DNA of 29,095 nucleotides from a virus. Its lineage: Duplodnaviria > Heunggongvirae > Uroviricota > Caudoviricetes. The DNA is taken from the IMG/VR virus record IMGVR_UViG_2872158770_000007; one strand, 5' to 3'. The notes beneath the pieces are model-generated. The model was not told the origin of the DNA and did not search any database. It saw nothing but the letters and a program-made list of their open reading frames with translations. Below, piece after piece: positions 2,043 through 26,181 of the stretch (positions within the stretch are counted from its first letter, which is position 1; every line of letters begins with the position of its first letter). The position numbers and the translations under genes were made by a program.

Positions 2043-2477
2043 TCAATTCAAGTACTCCAATAGTTCCTGTACTATTCCGAGTAGTCTTTTTTTATCCTTT
2101 GCATTTGGTGATCTAATCTTACTCATCATTGCCAGATTCAAACATTCCGGTTTAAGCATCTGATGAAGGATCAGTATTGCCTCTACAATCATTACCTCTC
2201 GCATAGTTGCGAAGCACCATAGAATCGTTTTTGAGTACTGTTCACCATTTTCAATTTTGTTTTTAACGACATTGGAACTACTGAGGTACTCACGCCAGCC
2301 ATTTTCCTTTGAAGTGGGCTTTAGCTTTCTCGCATCCTTAACCCGCTGATAGATTTGCTTAGCACCGACATAATTAGAACCATCCTCAAACTGAAAGATA
2401 TAAACGAAACCAGCATATTCACCGGATAACATTTCCTCCTCGCTCCAATCATCCGAGTATTTCCATTCACTCATCAT
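2043..2477 (-). CDS. putative GIY-YIG-like nuclease domain protein
   Basis: 144-aa ORF. GFVYIFQFEDGSNYVGAKQ has the Y-I-F ... Y-V-G spacing (about 10 residues) typical of the GIY-YIG motif, followed by a conserved Arg. Weak, motif-level only. Confidence 0.35.
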   Translation of the reverse strand: MMSEWKYSDDWSEEEMLSGEYAGFVYIFQFEDGSNYVGAKQIYQRVKDARKLKPTSKENGWREYLSSSNVVKNKIENGEQYSKTILWCFATMREVMIVEAILILHQMLKPECLNLAMMSKIRSPNAKDKKRLLGIVQELLEYLN

Positions 2478-2513: not shown

Positions 2514-2963
2514 ATGAGCGATTTAAAAACACGATTAAAAGAATATGAAGGTACTAAAGAGTATCAGGCAAATTTGAAGTACTTCAGAAATGGGAAATTC
2601 TATCCATATGCTGATAGTTTAGGATGTAGTACTATTGTATATGGTCACTTAATTCAGGCGGGAGAAGATTTTAGTACTGGCATTACTGAAAGCGAAGCAG
2701 ACAAGTTACTATCTCGCGATTTAGCCAAAACAATTATGCAGGTACAGACATTAGGGTTAAATCTTCCCGATGACTGGAATGATTTTATTATTATCATGAC
2801 CTTCCAGTTAGGTATTGGCGGGGTGAAGAAATTCCGTAAGATGTTAGCAGCCCTGAAAGCACATGATTACCTTGAAGCAATTAAACAGGCTAAGTGTTCT
2901 CTATGGTACAGGCAGACACCAAACCGTGTGAATTCCATGATTGCAGTACTTAAAAACAAATAA
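2514..2963 (+). CDS. phage lysozyme (endolysin), T4 lysozyme-like glycoside hydrolase family 24
   Basis: 149 aa. Collinear with T4 lysozyme: YEG (Glu11 equivalent), YADSLG (Asp20), STIVYGH (Thr26), ITESEADKLLSRDL versus T4 ITKDEAEKLFNQDV, and C-terminal SLWYRQTPNRVNSMIAVL versus T4 SRWYNQTPNRAKRVITTF. Confidence 0.9.
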   Translation: MSDLKTRLKEYEGTKEYQANLKYFRNGKFYPYADSLGCSTIVYGHLIQAGEDFSTGITESEADKLLSRDLAKTIMQVQTLGLNLPDDWNDFIIIMTFQLGIGGVKKFRKMLAALKAHDYLEAIKQAKCSLWYRQTPNRVNSMIAVLKNK

Positions 2964-2969
2964 AGAAAA

Positions 2970-3004
2970 GGCATAGTACGAATGACATACTATGCCTTTT
3001 TTTA
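2970..3004. terminator. bidirectional rho-independent terminator between convergent genes
   Basis: Perfect 9-bp stem ggcatagta / tactatgcc (2970-2978 and 2988-2996), 9-nt loop, then a T-run on the plus strand 2997-3003. An A-run (aaaagaaaag) precedes it, giving a U-tract for the minus-strand transcript. Confidence 0.7.
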
Positions 3005-3274
3005 TGGTCGTTGTTTCTGCTGAAGAATTGCAATAATCCTTTCAATCTTAACATCAAGTTCATGGATTTGTGTTTCCAGTTTACTTAGTGTATCTCTCAT
3101 CTTATCCTGATCATCCTCAATACGGGAAATACTACTTTCCAGTACAGCAATGGTAGTTTCAAGAGTAGCAACGCGAGTTAATAGATCATTCGTATCCTTT
3201 GTATTATCTCTAAAGATAGTATAAAGGAATACGCATCCAGAAATAACAAGAGCTAAAATAGCACCGATATCCAT
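3002..3274 (-). CDS. membrane-anchored coiled-coil protein (spanin-like or holin-like; function unproven)
   Basis: 90 aa. N-terminal hydrophobic segment AILALVISGCVFLYTIF followed by a heptad-like charged region (LETTIAVLESSISRIEDDQDKMRDTLSKLETQIHELDVKIERIIAILQ). AAGGGA-like Shine-Dalgarno about 8 nt upstream of the ATG. Confidence 0.4.
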   Translation of the reverse strand: MDIGAILALVISGCVFLYTIFRDNTKDTNDLLTRVATLETTIAVLESSISRIEDDQDKMRDTLSKLETQIHELDVKIERIIAILQQKQRP

Positions 3275-3287
3275 ACTGAAATCCCTT

Positions 3288-3338
3288 TGTTGTTATTGTT
3301 ATTGTTATTGTTATTGTTATTGTTATTGTTTTTGTATT
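3288..3338. repeat. hexanucleotide microsatellite (TGTTAT)n: 6 perfect units at 3291-3326 plus degenerate flanking units
   Basis: Direct reading: tgttat x6 followed by tgtttt and tgtatt. It occupies nearly the whole 59-bp spacer between the stop of the 218-aa gene (3334-3336) and the RBS/start of the 90-aa gene (3274). Confidence 0.9.
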
Positions 3339-3993
3339 AATACCCTGTAAATGTCGCCAATGCTATCTGGATACCATTATTCCCCATTGCCTGGCGGTAG
3401 GTTTTCTGGTTCTTTGAAACGTACTGTAGACTGAATGAAGTACTGGAATTACGCCTGATAACCAGACCAGAGTACCCAATTACTGTACCATCATCTGATA
3501 TGTTCCCCGGACATTGTGACCAGCAGAACCAGGGATCAGCTACTGGAGACGTTACCGTAATGGCAGTACTGAGATCGGTAGCCGCAGGTGCTGTCAAAAA
3601 TCCCCTGATACGTGGCATTGTTGCCGCTGATGCAGCAGACCAGATTAAAGTACCTTCTTCACTGAACACATCAAGAAAACCAGATGTGGGGGTAGCCGTG
3701 TGACTACTTGTCATGAACCTGCCCATGCCAGGCTGGAACATATAGGCACCAGGGAAACACCATGCCCCGTCTTTCTGTATCTGGAACCAGTACTGTGTTG
3801 TGTTCCTGTTAGCTACTACTGATGGCATAACGAAACCGAGCGATCCACCATTACCGAAGGCACAGGTAAAGCCTGTGTAGTATCCCGTATCAGTTAGATT
3901 TCCCATGGCCTTTACTGCACCCGTCATTATCGACTTGTTAGTACTATCTATAGTCAGTGCACCCGCTGAATTATATACCTCGAAACCTGCCAT
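3337..3993 (-). CDS. tail-associated hypothetical protein (paralogue of the adjacent 98-aa protein)
   Basis: 218 aa, immediately downstream of the J-like gene. N-terminus MAGFEVYNSAGALTIDSTNKSI aligns with MAQGLQCWNAAGVLVVDLTDYNI of the upstream gene. Gly/Thr/Ser-rich, beta-rich composition typical of fibre or receptor-binding proteins. Confidence 0.45.
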   Translation of the reverse strand: MAGFEVYNSAGALTIDSTNKSIMTGAVKAMGNLTDTGYYTGFTCAFGNGGSLGFVMPSVVANRNTTQYWFQIQKDGAWCFPGAYMFQPGMGRFMTSSHTATPTSGFLDVFSEEGTLIWSAASAATMPRIRGFLTAPAATDLSTAITVTSPVADPWFCWSQCPGNISDDGTVIGYSGLVIRRNSSTSFSLQYVSKNQKTYRQAMGNNGIQIALATFTGY

Positions 3994-3994
3994 C

Positions 3995-4291
3995 TTACGC
4001 CGTCCACTTATATACGTTAAAAGTGTAGTTACCAGCTAACGGTGCATATGTTGGCAAATAAACCGCAGTAAATGACCCATTATTACAAAAGGCTGACCAC
4101 TCATTAAAGGTATCACTGGCGGGGGCATAGTGTACAAACCAGCCTGTAGTTTTCATATTTGGTACTGATACAGTATAGGTCTGTGCAGAAGTAGCCTTGA
4201 CAGTATAAGTACCCATAAAACGTATGTTATAATCAGTCAGATCTACTACTAATACACCCGCTGCATTCCAACATTGTAATCCCTGTGCCAT
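3995..4291 (-). CDS. tail-associated hypothetical protein (short paralogue)
   Basis: 98 aa. Shares the N-terminal M-A-x5-N-x-A-G-x-L-x-x-D motif with the 218-aa gene. Its stop abuts the next start. Confidence 0.45.
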   Translation of the reverse strand: MAQGLQCWNAAGVLVVDLTDYNIRFMGTYTVKATSAQTYTVSVPNMKTTGWFVHYAPASDTFNEWSAFCNNGSFTAVYLPTYAPLAGNYTFNVYKWTA

Positions 4292-4448
4292 AGCTCTTAC
4301 TCCTGTAAATCCTTTTCTTCATTCCAATTGTTTCTTTTCCGCTAATACTGAATGGGTTAGTACTGGTACTATTGAAAGTACGTTCATTAGATTTCATTTA
4401 TGTATCCTTTTGAAATGAGGTTACAGTTAATAATCCCTGAATTATTTA

Positions 4449-9399
<4,951 letters not shown>

Positions 9400-14645: not shown

Positions 14646-17297
14646 TTATTTATTATTTAATAGCTGTTGTACTAAATCTTTTAGCTGATTAATTTCTTCT
14701 TGTTGGGCTTGAATAGCTCCCATCAAGTCCATCACTATTGGATTTAAATCAACACGTGGATGATCACGAGTGACAATCTCCCCTTCTATTTCAACTGTTT
14801 CTTCATCATGCTTAATGTACTGCGGAGCAGTCAACTCAGCATCTTCGGCGATAACACCAAACCTAACCCTTTCTTGTTCATCATCCTTGTAGATAAACGT
14901 TACTAAATCTTGTGACATTATCCGATCTAATGCTTCAACTGGATTTGCTGGAGTTATGTCTCTTTTAAACTCACGACCTGATGTACCTTGAGCTTGCATT
15001 ACTAACCATCCAAACCATGTTGTACCGTTCCCGCCTCGTACTCTTAAAGTACCACCACCGTCTATCTGAAGCTGAGAGCGATTTGCCCCTGGGTATCTTT
15101 GCATGTGCAATAAAGGGGAATATTTTTCACTATAGTTAATACCTGAGTCACCTGGCCCTGCATACATACCGTTAAAGGTGATGGTATTGGCATCTGTCGG
15201 TCCCGAAACAGCGGTATTAGTCATCCATCCTGATTGAACATCAGTTAGGATCGTTCCAGTCGGCCCTTTTAGCCCCCATAGTTTATCCTCTGCACCATTT
15301 TCAGAAATAAAAAGGGTGAGATCAGCCTGTCCAGTCTGTCCCATCGTTTTACCAACCCGAAAACCACCAGATATTTCAGTTGATGTACCAATGTTGCATA
15401 TCGAACGAATACGCCCTCCAGTTACATAACTACCAATTGCCGTAGAGGAAGGGGAAGAAGCAATAACATCCCATTGAGGACTAACTGAAGTACGACTACT
15501 CAGCAAGTTTTCAACCCAGCGTTTGGTAGTCGCGTCAGAATCAGAGACAGGATCTCCTGCTAAAGAAGTTGCACCCGTAGGACGAATCGCAGGCCATAAC
15601 TCAGCCTGAGTCTTAACACCAGTACCGCCCTGCGGAATTGCTAATGCTTTCCAGCCAGTGAAAGCACCCGCAATATATGTAGCTGAACCCCATTGCCCTC
15701 CATCATAAACCACTAATGCAGCGGAAGAATCAGCGGATTTAATAGTTGTTAAATTACTACCTTGATTAAAGCGATCCACCTGAAAGTTTAGGCGAGCACT
15801 CAAAGCATCTGTAGCCCCTGTCCCCCCCTGACCTATACCTAAAGCAATCCATCCAGTACCAGTACTTGCACCCCATGCCCCGTTATCCTGAATTCGGATA
15901 CGGTTAGTCAGGTCATTACTCATCAGATCGGTGTACGTAGCACCCTGAGTCAAACGGTTCACCTGTAGGTTAGTACGTGCTGTAGAGAGACTGGATAGAT
16001 CAGAAAGGTTACTCGCTTTCTTCATGGAAGCGGAATCAAGGGAAGTAATACTGTCAGCTAAAGCCGTTACCTCTGCATCTACTTCATCCATTGAGTAAAC
16101 AGCAAGGTTAATACGTGCTTCTTCCACGTCCCCCAGATCACTTAGATTACCTGCTATCGTAAGCTGGGCATCATCTGTAACCTTCCCTAAGCCAACATCA
16201 GTACTGGTAAGTACTACATCCTCACTGAGTACATGACCGTTGACCATACGTGTATCAGGTACTGAACCTGTATCTTCACTACTCAGTACTACATTTTCAC
16301 TAAGTACATGACCGTTCACTGTACGCGTGTCAGGTACTGAACCTGTATCTTCACTACTCAGTACTATATCTTCACTGAGTACATGACCATTAACTGTCCG
16401 TGTATCTGGTACAGAGCCGGTATCAGTACTGGTAAGTACTACATCCTCACTTAGAGGCTTACCATTCACAGTACGTGTATCAGGTACTGAACCTGTATCT
16501 TCACTGTTCAGTACTAAATTGGCCGTGAGTGCATGGCCGTTGATGGTACGTGTAAGGGGTACGTATCGCCCGTCCATCTGTGTAGCGGTATATATGCGTG
16601 TCCAGGCGGTTGTAGCGTTCTTTGCATAGATACTTAGAGTACCCGTCTTTGTCATCGCAAGAGAACTTACAGTAGTGCCATCTACAAGCCCTACTCCCAT
16701 CAGATCCGCCCCGGCAGGATTGCCTGCTTGAGATGATGGTACTTTGATGAAGCTGTTACCCGTAGGTACTGATGGTGAGTACTGAGGTACATCCGTAGTG
16801 TTCGAACCTAAACCGTAGTCCCCCTGATAGATTGGCGATAGTGCGTTAATGGTCATTGCACGTGCGATCACATCATGTGGGGCAAAACTGTATGCCTTGG
16901 TTACTACTGAACCTTTATCACCGTCCAACTTATAAGAGGTGATATAACCATTCACCATCGCATAAGTAATGGTATTTTCATCCTTATTCATCTGGTACTG
17001 AATGATGATCTGGAAAAGCTGCTGAGACTTAGCGGCATTATCCAAGAATTGATGTGTAGGATCATCAGGTAGGTAGTTAACTACAATATCAAATGGTGCT
17101 ACTGATTTATCAGATAGTAGTACTGTCCTGTAATCACTATCATACGTTTCAAAATTATTTGCTTCTGAATTTATTGTTAAGGTTGGAAAAGTATTAATCT
17201 GTTTAATTACTACATTGCCTGCTCCCTGTGGTGTTCTGTTACCAATATCAGCATTATACTGTACTGATAATTCTCTTCCTGAGAAAATATCACTCAT
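14646..17297 (-). CDS. tail-tube-domain protein fused to a repeat-containing fibre with C-terminal intramolecular chaperone (peptidase S74-like) domain
   Basis: 883 aa. Residues 1-150 align with the 157-aa tail tube protein (DIFSG..L.V, NTF.T, VNYLPDD..HQ.L, GDK..VVTK). Five tandem 25-aa repeats (PDTRTVNGHVLSEDVVLSSEDTGSV). Phage-fibre motifs GQGGTGATDALSARLNFQV and PQGGTGVKT. C-terminus SGREFKRDITP...RFGVIAEDAEL...QEEINQLKDL resembles the self-cleaving chaperone of tail fibres and endosialidases. Confidence 0.6.
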   Translation of the reverse strand: MSDIFSGRELSVQYNADIGNRTPQGAGNVVIKQINTFPTLTINSEANNFETYDSDYRTVLLSDKSVAPFDIVVNYLPDDPTHQFLDNAAKSQQLFQIIIQYQMNKDENTITYAMVNGYITSYKLDGDKGSVVTKAYSFAPHDVIARAMTINALSPIYQGDYGLGSNTTDVPQYSPSVPTGNSFIKVPSSQAGNPAGADLMGVGLVDGTTVSSLAMTKTGTLSIYAKNATTAWTRIYTATQMDGRYVPLTRTINGHALTANLVLNSEDTGSVPDTRTVNGKPLSEDVVLTSTDTGSVPDTRTVNGHVLSEDIVLSSEDTGSVPDTRTVNGHVLSENVVLSSEDTGSVPDTRMVNGHVLSEDVVLTSTDVGLGKVTDDAQLTIAGNLSDLGDVEEARINLAVYSMDEVDAEVTALADSITSLDSASMKKASNLSDLSSLSTARTNLQVNRLTQGATYTDLMSNDLTNRIRIQDNGAWGASTGTGWIALGIGQGGTGATDALSARLNFQVDRFNQGSNLTTIKSADSSAALVVYDGGQWGSATYIAGAFTGWKALAIPQGGTGVKTQAELWPAIRPTGATSLAGDPVSDSDATTKRWVENLLSSRTSVSPQWDVIASSPSSTAIGSYVTGGRIRSICNIGTSTEISGGFRVGKTMGQTGQADLTLFISENGAEDKLWGLKGPTGTILTDVQSGWMTNTAVSGPTDANTITFNGMYAGPGDSGINYSEKYSPLLHMQRYPGANRSQLQIDGGGTLRVRGGNGTTWFGWLVMQAQGTSGREFKRDITPANPVEALDRIMSQDLVTFIYKDDEQERVRFGVIAEDAELTAPQYIKHDEETVEIEGEIVTRDHPRVDLNPIVMDLMGAIQAQQEEINQLKDLVQQLLNNK
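16180..16560. repeat. tandem 75-bp direct repeats (about 5 copies) inside the fibre gene
   Basis: The unit tcaggtactgaacctgtatcttcact... recurs at 16255, 16330, (variant) 16405 and 16480. It encodes the 25-aa protein repeat. Confidence 0.85.
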
Positions 17298-18045: not shown

Positions 18046-23388
<5,343 letters not shown>

Positions 23389-23796
23389 TAGACTGGCCCC
23401 CTGAATCTCCAGACAACCAGTATCACTTAAATAAGTGATAGTCTTAATACTAGTTTTTAGACTAGTCATTGGAGTACAGATGATTGATGTCTTAGGGCCG
23501 GAGAAACGCAGACGGCGTACCACACAGGAAAAGATCGCAATTGTTCAGCAGAGCTTTGAACCGGGGATGACGGTCTCCCTCGTTGCCCGGCAACATGGTG
23601 TAGCAGCCAGCCAGTTATTTCTCTGGCGTAAGCAATACCAGGAAGGAAGTCTTACTGCTGTGGCCGCCGGAGAACAGGTTGTTCCTGCCTCTGAACTTGC
23701 TGCCGCCATGAAGCAGATTAAAGAACTCCAGAGCCTGCTCGGCAAGAAAACGATGGAAAATGAACTCCTCAAAGAAGCCGTTGAATATGGACGGGC

Positions 23797-26181
<2,385 letters not shown>

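Follow-up and report, generated by a model that had tools for sequence, protein, structure and literature searches.

Two adjacent genes lying just behind the J-like fiber gene of a prophage probably make up the distal cassette with which a lambda-like siphophage tail recognizes its receptor, and in which the larger product (218 aa) would be the receptor-binding protein (RBP) and the smaller one (98 aa) an adaptor, both seated on the tip of the J trimer. The genes are contained in a 29,095-nucleotide stretch of viral DNA (IMG/VR record IMGVR_UViG_2872158770_000007), which we refer to here as the window. A first-pass annotation, made from the sequence alone, had read them as paralogues serving as alternative receptor-binding or fiber-accessory modules on a common attachment domain. 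The tail-tip role and the shared attachment-like N-terminus of that reading were borne out by our analysis; the notions of alternative modules and of paralogy over the whole length were not. Modules of this kind are already known in other phages, and the window is a well-resolved further example.

The layout of the locus is summarized in Table 1. The small and large genes follow the J-like gene, as the first-pass annotation had noted. Both are on the minus strand and directly 3' of the J ORF, which a profile search assigned to phrog_31, "central tail fiber J" (E = 3.5e-61); Pfam matches to Phage_Tail_Tip, Phage-tail_3, and fn3 were obtained as well. A single base separates the stop codon of the small gene from the ATG of the large gene. 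The spacer between J and the small gene recurred in IMG/VR loci L026, L027, and L038, and the corresponding gaps in other relatives measured either -4 to ∼50 nt or ∼185 to 240 nt. The 90-aa ORF that follows the large gene was considered as a further member of the cassette and dropped. Judging by its surroundings, it is more likely a lysis gene, since in a few relatives an endolysin gene adjoins it on the 3' side and on the same strand.

Table 1. Features of the J-proximal locus, in window coordinates
Feature	Position	Strand	Basis
Small gene, 98-aa small beta-sandwich protein (adaptor-like; phrog_7961)	3995-4291	minus	ORF list
Large gene, 218-aa receptor-binding-type protein (phrog_4524; PF28254 on homologues)	3337-3993	minus	ORF list
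Small-protein N-terminal hairpin motif GLQCWNAAGVLVVDLT, residues 4-19	4235-4282	minus	Translation; predicted strands E6-8, E14-17
Large-protein N-terminal hairpin motif GFEVYNSAGALTIDST, residues 3-18	3940-3987	minus	Translation; predicted strands E5-7, E13-16
Large-protein internal second hairpin-like motif SGFLDVFSEEGTLIWSA, residues 104-120	3634-3684	minus	Translation; predicted strands E108-110, E116-119
J-like central fiber, conserved 45-aa C-terminal tail, proposed socket for the pair	4452-4586	minus	Translation, cross-locus identity
J-like central tail fiber gene, 3' part (5' part displaced by IS element)	4449-7469	minus	ORF
Spacer between J and small gene, 157 nt	4292-4448	minus	AGGAG 8 nt 5' of small-gene ATG
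90-aa membrane/coiled-coil ORF, 3' of large gene	3002-3274	minus	
Strong terminator-like hairpin, closing the unit	2966-3000	minus	

Both proteins could be placed in existing phage protein families. Residues 1 to 217 of the 218-aa protein aligned with positions 1 to 230 of the phrog_4524 profile (E = 1.6e-54), and residues 1 to 89 of the 98-aa protein matched phrog_7961 (E = 9.1e-16). All 77 of the 77 large-protein homologues carry a precomputed PF28254 assignment, which is an annotation of the homologues and not a score of the window protein; Pfam (in a copy that lacked the PF28254 model) and NCBIfam returned no family for either protein. Assignment of the 218-aa protein to DUF6453 was tried and dropped because profile comparison was not significant (hhalign of the window families against DUF6453: E = 0.031, with a probability of 1.6%, and E = 0.017), and the window proteins gave no Pfam match to PF20051 at E <= 0.1. 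Sequence searches of the PDB, whether started from one of the two proteins or from the profile of the small family, returned nothing or weak matches to antibody VH domains, which we regard as chance. At the nucleotide level, the region had no blastn match among phage records and no megablast match among complete E. coli genomes. Most annotation pipelines label both genes "hypothetical," and several GenBank records omit the small gene altogether.

The two proteins have a common start, G-[LF]-x-x-[WY]-N-x-A-G-x-L-x-x-D-x-T, and from the Asn on, the pattern N-x-A-G-x-L-x-x-D-x-T is exact in both (NAAGVLVVDLT and NSAGALTIDST; 6/11 identical). The beginning of the motif as originally proposed, M-A-x5-N, fits only the 218-aa protein, the 98-aa protein having six rather than five residues before the Asn, a register shift of one residue. 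Two sequences alone could not carry the motif claim, because their pairwise alignment, one of the checks that had been suggested, was not significant (BLASTP, E = 5.4). The families do carry it. We gathered 77 homologues for the large protein and 17 for the small protein, together with 111 clusters for the small family from an exhaustive profile search. When the family profiles were aligned with each other, only the N-terminal 14 to 19 columns matched (P = 1.4e-5 to 5e-6; probability, 80 to 86%). Once the small family was represented by a more diverse alignment, hhalign gave a score of 36.7, above that of every one of 150 column-shuffled controls (maximum, 25.0), and the reversed-profile control scored 14.7. 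A position-restricted shuffle of the single sequences, a test picked after the motif had been seen, gave P ∼8e-5. By the profile comparison and both shuffle tests, the common N-terminus goes beyond chance. Narrow per-family motif HMMs did not cross-detect the other motif copies, nor did they detect the putative motifs that we picked out by eye in the RBP of phage Oekolampad and in gp25 and gp26 of phage JLBYU60.

Past the motif, the two proteins diverge as described in the first-pass annotation, with nothing further aligning significantly. "Paralogous pair" is for this reason too strong a term for the whole proteins, of which only ∼16 to 19 residues are demonstrably related. Of the Gly/Thr/Tyr-rich composition ascribed to them, the Thr richness was confirmed (11.5 to 13.3%); Gly amounted to 6 to 11% and Tyr to 4 to 8%.

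In neither family (74 and 82 distinct sequences) was any other segment as conserved as the N-terminal motif, with a column entropy of 0.6 to 1.2 bits over the first 20 residues versus 1.3 to 2.3 bits elsewhere. In the large family, G3, F4, and N8 were invariant and G11, L13, and D16 nearly so. That family also contains an internal segment, SG[YF]LDVFxxxGxLIWSA, which is patterned like the N-terminal motif and in which S104, G105, V109, G114, W118, and A120 were invariant; the profile similarity between the internal and N-terminal motifs of the large protein was weak (E = 3e-3). A hairpin-like motif was found at the equivalent position in three proteins from other phages, DEV gp54, JLBYU60 gp26, and phiXacJX1 gp21. 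AlphaFold produced confident models of both proteins (large protein, pLDDT of 84.6 and pTM of 0.79; small protein, pLDDT of 87.8), in which all three motif copies, one in the small and two in the large protein, formed beta-hairpins. The N-terminal motif of the large protein had the lowest pLDDT of its monomer model, 62 to 64 versus ∼90 in the core. A segment that is the most conserved and yet has the lowest pLDDT in the monomer fits one that becomes ordered on a partner. The fold predicted for the large protein may resemble that of a solved RBP (9RPT chain C), and the small protein is predicted to fold as a sandwich like those of lectins or tailspike tips. The C-terminal receptor-binding domain of lambda J, which is Ig-like, occupies the equivalent functional position at the J tip, and Matusiak et al. 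compare the small protein to the Ig-like domain of lambda J (PMC12309495); our 98-aa protein gave no fold match to it.

To follow the genes across phages, we fetched the loci that contain the large protein, 19 from species-representative genomes and 80 from IMG/VR. The small gene stood directly upstream of the large gene and on the same strand in 98/99 loci, with gaps of -4 to +12 nt across the 99 loci when annotated starts were used; longer apparent overlaps traced to upstream alternative starts. The small and large genes thus form a fixed, translationally coupled cassette. Just 5' of it, a long J-like ORF ended in most loci, with the tail ...GW[QK][IL][ND]KxG...GR[ML]xI...IxI[YF]DxNxxLRVRMGL[WF]*. 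The last 60 aa of J were 53 to 92% identical across loci, and the 200 aa before them were only 24 to 32% identical in distant loci. In HK639-like loci, where both cassette proteins were 36 to 42% identical to those of the window, the values were 53 to 67% for the last 60 J residues versus 24 to 30% for the preceding 200. Because the tail is conserved while the preceding part of J diverges, we conclude that the J tail (∼45 residues) is inherited in one block with the small and large genes. Very different phages have the triad of J tail, small gene, and large gene too, namely Xanthomonas phage phiXacJX1 (gp20 and gp21) and Stenotrophomonas phage Yut1. One metagenomic contig encodes a 307-aa fiber ending ...VIKVYDSGGTLRVKIGDLSA*, a tail as in the window, and then a single 313-aa protein (P0173) in which the motif is present three times and whose first third is a bona fide member of the small family (E = 1e-12). 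Similarities of the J tail to residues 54 to 116 of the 218-aa protein (P = 6.5e-4) and of the last J-tail hairpin to the N-terminus of the small protein (P = 2e-3) were too weak to lean on.

The closest characterized counterpart of the locus is gp56-gp55-gp54 of Pseudomonas phage DEV. The gene order is the same, a J-like fiber followed by proteins of ∼99 and ∼220 aa, with start and stop codons that overlap or abut; in DEV, the three proteins have 429, 99, and 223 aa, and their codons overlap. In PDB sequence searches, the J tail of the window proved homologous to the C-terminus of DEV gp56 (9ze4_N, E = 9e-18), in an alignment that reached to within 4 residues of the gp56 end, and the J C-terminus also matched T1 gp33 (9l9p_S). 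The window J thus has the conserved tail of this fiber type, ...GTGRMxIxNxxIxxxDxxxxLRVxxG.... The N-terminus of DEV gp55, GFRFYDANGNVTVDSTNKS, aligned by hhalign with both window families (P = 1.1e-5 for the 218-aa family and P = 8.6e-5 for the 98-aa family), and its start, MSYGFRFYDANGNVTVDSTNKS, shared 58% identity with the large window protein's N-terminus over a stretch of 19 residues. Only the N-terminal 19 to 24 residues aligned (hmmsearch, E = 4e-5), the bodies having no detectable similarity. DEV gp54, like the large window protein, has one N-terminal and one internal hairpin and a similar length; the sequence scores between the two were not significant (E = 0.01 to 0.026), and its body differs from that of the 218-aa protein in having no detectable sequence homology to it. 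The phages themselves also differ. DEV is an N4-like podovirus with a short lateral fiber of 429 aa, whereas the window encodes a siphophage's central J of ∼1100 aa, and the DEV receptor, LptD, need not hold for the window.

Transcription of the three DEV genes is joint, and the phage can do without neither gp55 nor gp54, both being essential (Nieto Noblecia et al., mBio 2026, PMC12892993). DEV gp54 is the RBP, as mutations in it suppress an lptD resistance allele, gp55 was assigned the role of adaptor, and one gp55 and one gp54 were placed at the gp56 trimer's distal end by AF3 (ipTM of 0.8) together with low-resolution cryo-EM (PMC12892993). If the analogy holds, the RBP role, the need for both proteins, and the modelled 3:1:1 stoichiometry of these literature counterparts (PMC12892993) would extend to the window pair. 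There are no PDB entries for DEV gp55 and gp54, and in the T1 gp33 structure the C-terminus is unresolved. To our knowledge, no atomic structure of a junction between J tail, adaptor, and RBP exists.

The DEV match, the same hairpin in gp55, and the agreement in sizes and order led us to read the pair as an adaptor and an RBP that act jointly rather than as alternatives. According to the opposite view, each tip would carry the small protein as a homotrimer or else a single large protein, giving two virion subpopulations with different receptors; the first-pass annotation had spoken of alternative modules, and alternative caps are, independently, hypothesis 1 of Matusiak et al. 2025 (PMC12309495). 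Proteins with a common N-terminal motif could indeed compete for one J site, for three phages AF2-Multimer could model the J tip with the one protein or the other (PMC12309495), and the small protein has the lectin or tailspike-tip-like sandwich. We nevertheless consider alternative caps quite unlikely, given that the genes are strictly linked and coupled, occurring together in 98/99 loci, that DEV needs both counterparts, of which AF3 puts one copy each on the same trimer (PMC12892993), and that one hairpin plus two would add up to a joint cap. The P0173 chain, with its three motif copies behind a fiber with the same tail, likewise speaks against them.

The small protein might also be non-structural and absent from virions, serving as a chaperone in the assembly of the large protein or the J tip as tail-fiber assembly proteins do. 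It is small, its gene adjoins that of the putative client and is translationally coupled to it, and virion mass spectrometry of DEV was uncertain for gp55 (PMC12892993). Such a role is very unlikely in our estimation: the most conserved part of the small protein is the hairpin that its structural partner also uses, orthologues are reported to be structural in phage LIT1 (PMC12892993), the small-protein module is fused into P0173 as the first of three modules, and the fold resembles fiber-tip domains and not known chaperones.

For the joint cassette, we propose the following arrangement. The J-like fiber would be a trimer ending in three identical tails of ∼45 residues. The 218-aa protein, as the RBP, would sit at the J tip in a single copy and contact a host outer-membrane protein, and the 98-aa protein would be a small beta-sandwich adaptor on that same tip that stabilizes the attachment. 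Each protein begins with the beta-hairpin, of which the large one has a second, internal copy, and these hairpins would act as plugs fitting the J tail. Docking of the hairpins onto the J tail is suggested because they are extremely conserved, because the pLDDT of the hairpin is low in the monomer model of the large protein, because they are co-inherited with the J tail, and because one plus two hairpins, or three in the P0173 chain, would be available for three tails. The idea of a common attachment element in the first-pass annotation gains from the motif being the most conserved segment, inherited with the J tail, and recurring in DEV gp55, an essential adaptor (PMC12892993).

A different origin of the motif has to be weighed here. 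It could be the first element of a common beta-sandwich domain, the relic of an old domain duplication, with no role in docking. The motif does occur internally in the large protein, the predicted strand order of the 98-aa protein (a hairpin plus six strands) resembles that of large-protein residues 103 to 200 nearly element by element, and residues 115 to 196 of DEV gp54 align weakly with the small-family profile (P = 4.9e-4). On account of the matching strand order and the DEV gp54 alignment, the small protein and the large protein's C-terminal half may be domains of one kind, although the hint is weak. If the hairpin were purely structural, one would not expect it to remain the most conserved part while the rest of its domain drifts, nor would block co-variation with the J tail across unrelated phages be expected, and we regard a relic without docking as unlikely. 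The relic reading is otherwise compatible with the arrangement proposed above and differs from it only on the point of hairpin docking.

A more general form of hairpin docking is possible, although we put it forward only tentatively. The hairpin and the J tail may be a portable plug-and-socket, with the cap supplying exactly three hairpin-led modules for three tails. The modules would be split as one (98 aa) plus two (218 aa) here, as in DEV, JLBYU60, and phiXacJX1, and would be joined in one chain elsewhere, e.g., in P0173 (313 aa); the Oekolampad RBP may be similar. If true, a pseudo-threefold cap would solve the 3-to-1 symmetry mismatch, and the last ∼45 J residues would be the point at which receptor-binding modules can be exchanged between very different phages.

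Related systems place the pair among genes that determine receptor use. By tblastn, full-length homologues of both proteins adjoin J in the lambdoid phage HK639 (gp24 and gp25), in Klebsiella Webervirus phages, and in the Tempevirinae IME347, IsaakIselin (Bas10), and JohannLBurckhardt (Bas11). Relative to the latter three, the 218-aa protein was 35.6 to 37% identical over 100% of its length and the 98-aa protein was ∼31 to 33% identical, so that both window genes pass the homology threshold used for the YncD-type locus (>30% identity at near-full coverage; bioRxiv 10.64898/2026.04.02.716166). All three phages depend on YncD (PMC8594841; bioRxiv 10.64898/2026.04.02.716166 Table S1), and the locus beside gpJ has been tied to receptor specificity in Drexlerviridae and Dhillonvirus (Maffei et al. 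2021, PMC8594841; bioRxiv 10.64898/2026.04.02.716166). The RBP label that the preprint gives for Bas10, "CDS_0024," could not be matched to a GenBank gene. The J tail of the YncD-type phages is the same as that of the window. In these lytic phages, however, the cassette lies on the strand opposite to J, and the third gene of the locus, which comes after it, encodes a secreted protein of 110 aa, whereas in the window it is co-oriented with J and followed by the 90-aa membrane/coiled-coil ORF and an endolysin gene. As a best guess from sequence, held with low confidence, the receptor might be a TonB-dependent transporter such as YncD, because of the 36% identity to YncD-type alleles. That identity is low enough to allow a different specificity.

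Among the more distant systems, Dhillonvirus JLBYU60 resembles the window in having, after J, a 100-aa Ig-like protein (gp25) and a 224-aa "hand-like" one (gp26), with what appear by eye to be one plus two hairpin-like motifs. Its gp25 and gp26 differ in lacking significant sequence homology to the window proteins, and the phage depends on FhuA. It was by modelling alone that Matusiak et al. 2025 (PMC12309495) assigned the JLBYU60 pair, and those of other phages, to the tip of J; that paper does not mention a common N-terminal motif. The Oekolampad RBP (bas18_0025, DUF6453/PF20051) has been solved with LptDE (PDB 9RPT; bioRxiv 10.1101/2025.07.07.663478). Unlike the window pair, it is a single chain of 321 aa with no small partner gene, and its tail-proximal part is disordered in the structure. 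Phage T5 offers a likeness in principle, in that a separately encoded monomeric RBP, pb5, sits on the trimeric pb4 and binds an outer-membrane protein (PMC9586334, PMC12309495).

Relatives of the pair in JLBYU60 and tv24B are annotated as "membrane associated protein" or "outer membrane protein" (PMC12309495), which would suit host-directed or membrane proteins, whether Lom-like, membrane-associated, or acting in superinfection exclusion. Neither window protein has a signal peptide, lipobox, or transmembrane segment (maximum Kyte-Doolittle 19-residue means of 0.92 and 1.16), and their N-termini are taken up by the polar hairpin motif. Moreover, the pair is present in strictly lytic phages, and the exclusion-type gene of the YncD locus is a separate one, its 110-aa product carrying a Sec signal peptide and being more likely the exclusion factor. 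Since signal peptides and transmembrane segments are absent, we rejected a membrane or exclusion role, which is highly improbable.

The prophage itself is a defective, decayed remnant in a Shigella-type genome. Among database sequences, the one closest to the small protein was a Shigella sonnei protein, at 100% identity. An IS3-family element (ORFs at 7399-8238 and 8265-8603) divides the J gene, with the J start displaced to 8548-9003, and another IS breaks up the terminase region. Both cassette genes are intact, with identical copies in IMG/VR contigs L026 and L027, and the cassette is now unable to serve a working tail. Because the prophage is defective, we can only infer that the window's copy of the cassette ever functions, and because it is a decayed remnant, the practical meaning for this window is small.

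The wider meaning lies in the family. In the literature consulted, we did not find an explicit hairpin motif common to adaptor and RBP, the proposed pairing of that motif with the J tail in siphophages and podophages alike, or the proposed count of three hairpins. The pair marks the end at which many siphophage tails, and some tails of podophages, recognize the receptor, and the combination of the J tail with a small hairpin protein and a large protein with two hairpins is a sequence signature by which the RBP may be found in new phages and prophages. If the hairpin docks as proposed, it would also define a cut site for swapping specificity, and the last ∼45 residues of J should then be moved together with the cassette.

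The two-gene cassette that follows the J-like central tail fibre gene, made up of a small (98-aa) and a large (218-aa) gene, is bordered by a stretch that varies even between near-identical relatives. We found a TTGTTA hexanucleotide repeat just 3' of the 218-aa gene, with about 7.7 copies in the window, 6 in the related loci L026 and L027, and about 1 in L038. These differences in copy number suggest slippage directly upstream of the ribosome-binding site of the next gene. That gene, a 90-aa ORF, closes the tail operon and probably has a role in lysis; its counterpart comes after the cassette in 53 related loci, with 26 to 100% identity. In the window and in most relatives, the adjoining lysozyme gene and this ORF lie on opposite strands; a few relatives have both on one strand. 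Beyond it, the position of the gene for the 144-aa GIY-YIG protein is filled in most related loci by ORFs of 141 to 152 aa (matched by size and position), which would be odd if the gene were a mobile homing endonuclease.

Location and properties of features in the window and in related loci (L numbers)
Feature	Coordinates	Properties
144-aa protein	window 2043-2477	SegE-type GIY-YIG domain, Pfam E 2e-16
Phage lysozyme gene	window 2514-2963	adjoins 90-aa ORF
90-aa ORF	window 3002-3274	N-terminal hydrophobic segment and coiled coil; weak Rz-like and XhlA-like matches
(TTGTTA) x 7.7 repeat	window 3290-3335	within the 62-nt gap between 218-aa gene and 90-aa ORF
IS3-family element inside J-like gene	window 7399-9003 region	orfB 7399-8238, orfA 8265-8603
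883-aa fibre-like ORF	window 14646-17297	~25-residue unit (...SVPDTRTVNGHVLSEDVVLSSEDTG...) repeated several times in tandem
Second IS3-family element	within window 21888-25122	ORFs 23435-23845 and 23803-24708
bas10_0024 of IsaakIselin	L002 5729-6061	third gene of YncD-type locus; 110-aa protein, classical Sec signal peptide MKKIMLAMALVAPLNAMA
Small gene, Cronobacter phage SG01	L106 4001-4290	
Small gene, ENT39118	L107 3001-3298	
Small gene, Stenotrophomonas phage Yut1	L111 2501-2810	

Elsewhere in the prophage, an 883-aa fibre-like ORF has the head genes on one side and the gene for the major tail protein on the other, which is not where a fibre gene usually lies. Two IS3-family elements were also detected. 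The first, whose OrfA we take from its sequence to be IS911-like, has moved the start of the J-like gene to 8548-9003, and this tail gene of the prophage is thus broken. The second, presumably IS2-like, separates two pieces (21888-23348 and 24679-25122) that look like parts of the large terminase gene, a further sign of a decayed prophage.

The surroundings of the cassette differ among the related loci. In the receptor-specificity locus beside J in YncD-dependent coliphages, the product of the third gene (bas10_0024 in IsaakIselin) may act in the periplasm as a superinfection-exclusion factor; among the 98 loci analysed, only L025 encodes a relative of it. No J-like ORF precedes the small/large pair in the IMG/VR contigs L087 to L091, L097, L099, L101, L103 and L105, which are 50 to 112 kb long; in L090 the gene on one side of the pair is methyltransferase-like (561 aa) and the one on the other side UmuC-like. 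These large contigs may be phage-plasmids that encode the cassette apart from the fibre gene. Across L106, L107 and L111, the small gene lacks annotation in two GenBank phage records, and in Yut1 two short wrong-frame ORFs stand in its place.

As to the origin of the cassette proteins, the conserved last ~45 residues of the J-like fibre (4452-4586, minus strand) aligned weakly with residues 54-116 of the 218-aa protein (3646-3834; hhalign P 6.5e-4), the two having in common W-Q-I-x-K-x-G and G-x-G-R-[MF], followed by a hairpin. The alignment is a hint that duplication of the end of J may have given rise to the cap. Residues 27-97 of the small-family profile, in turn, matched repeatedly, in up to 12 stretches, within giant proteins of 1,200 to 3,900 aa (P0120, P0124, P0145, P0171 and P0176), which suggests that a beta-sandwich domain of a widespread, repeated type makes up the body of the small protein.
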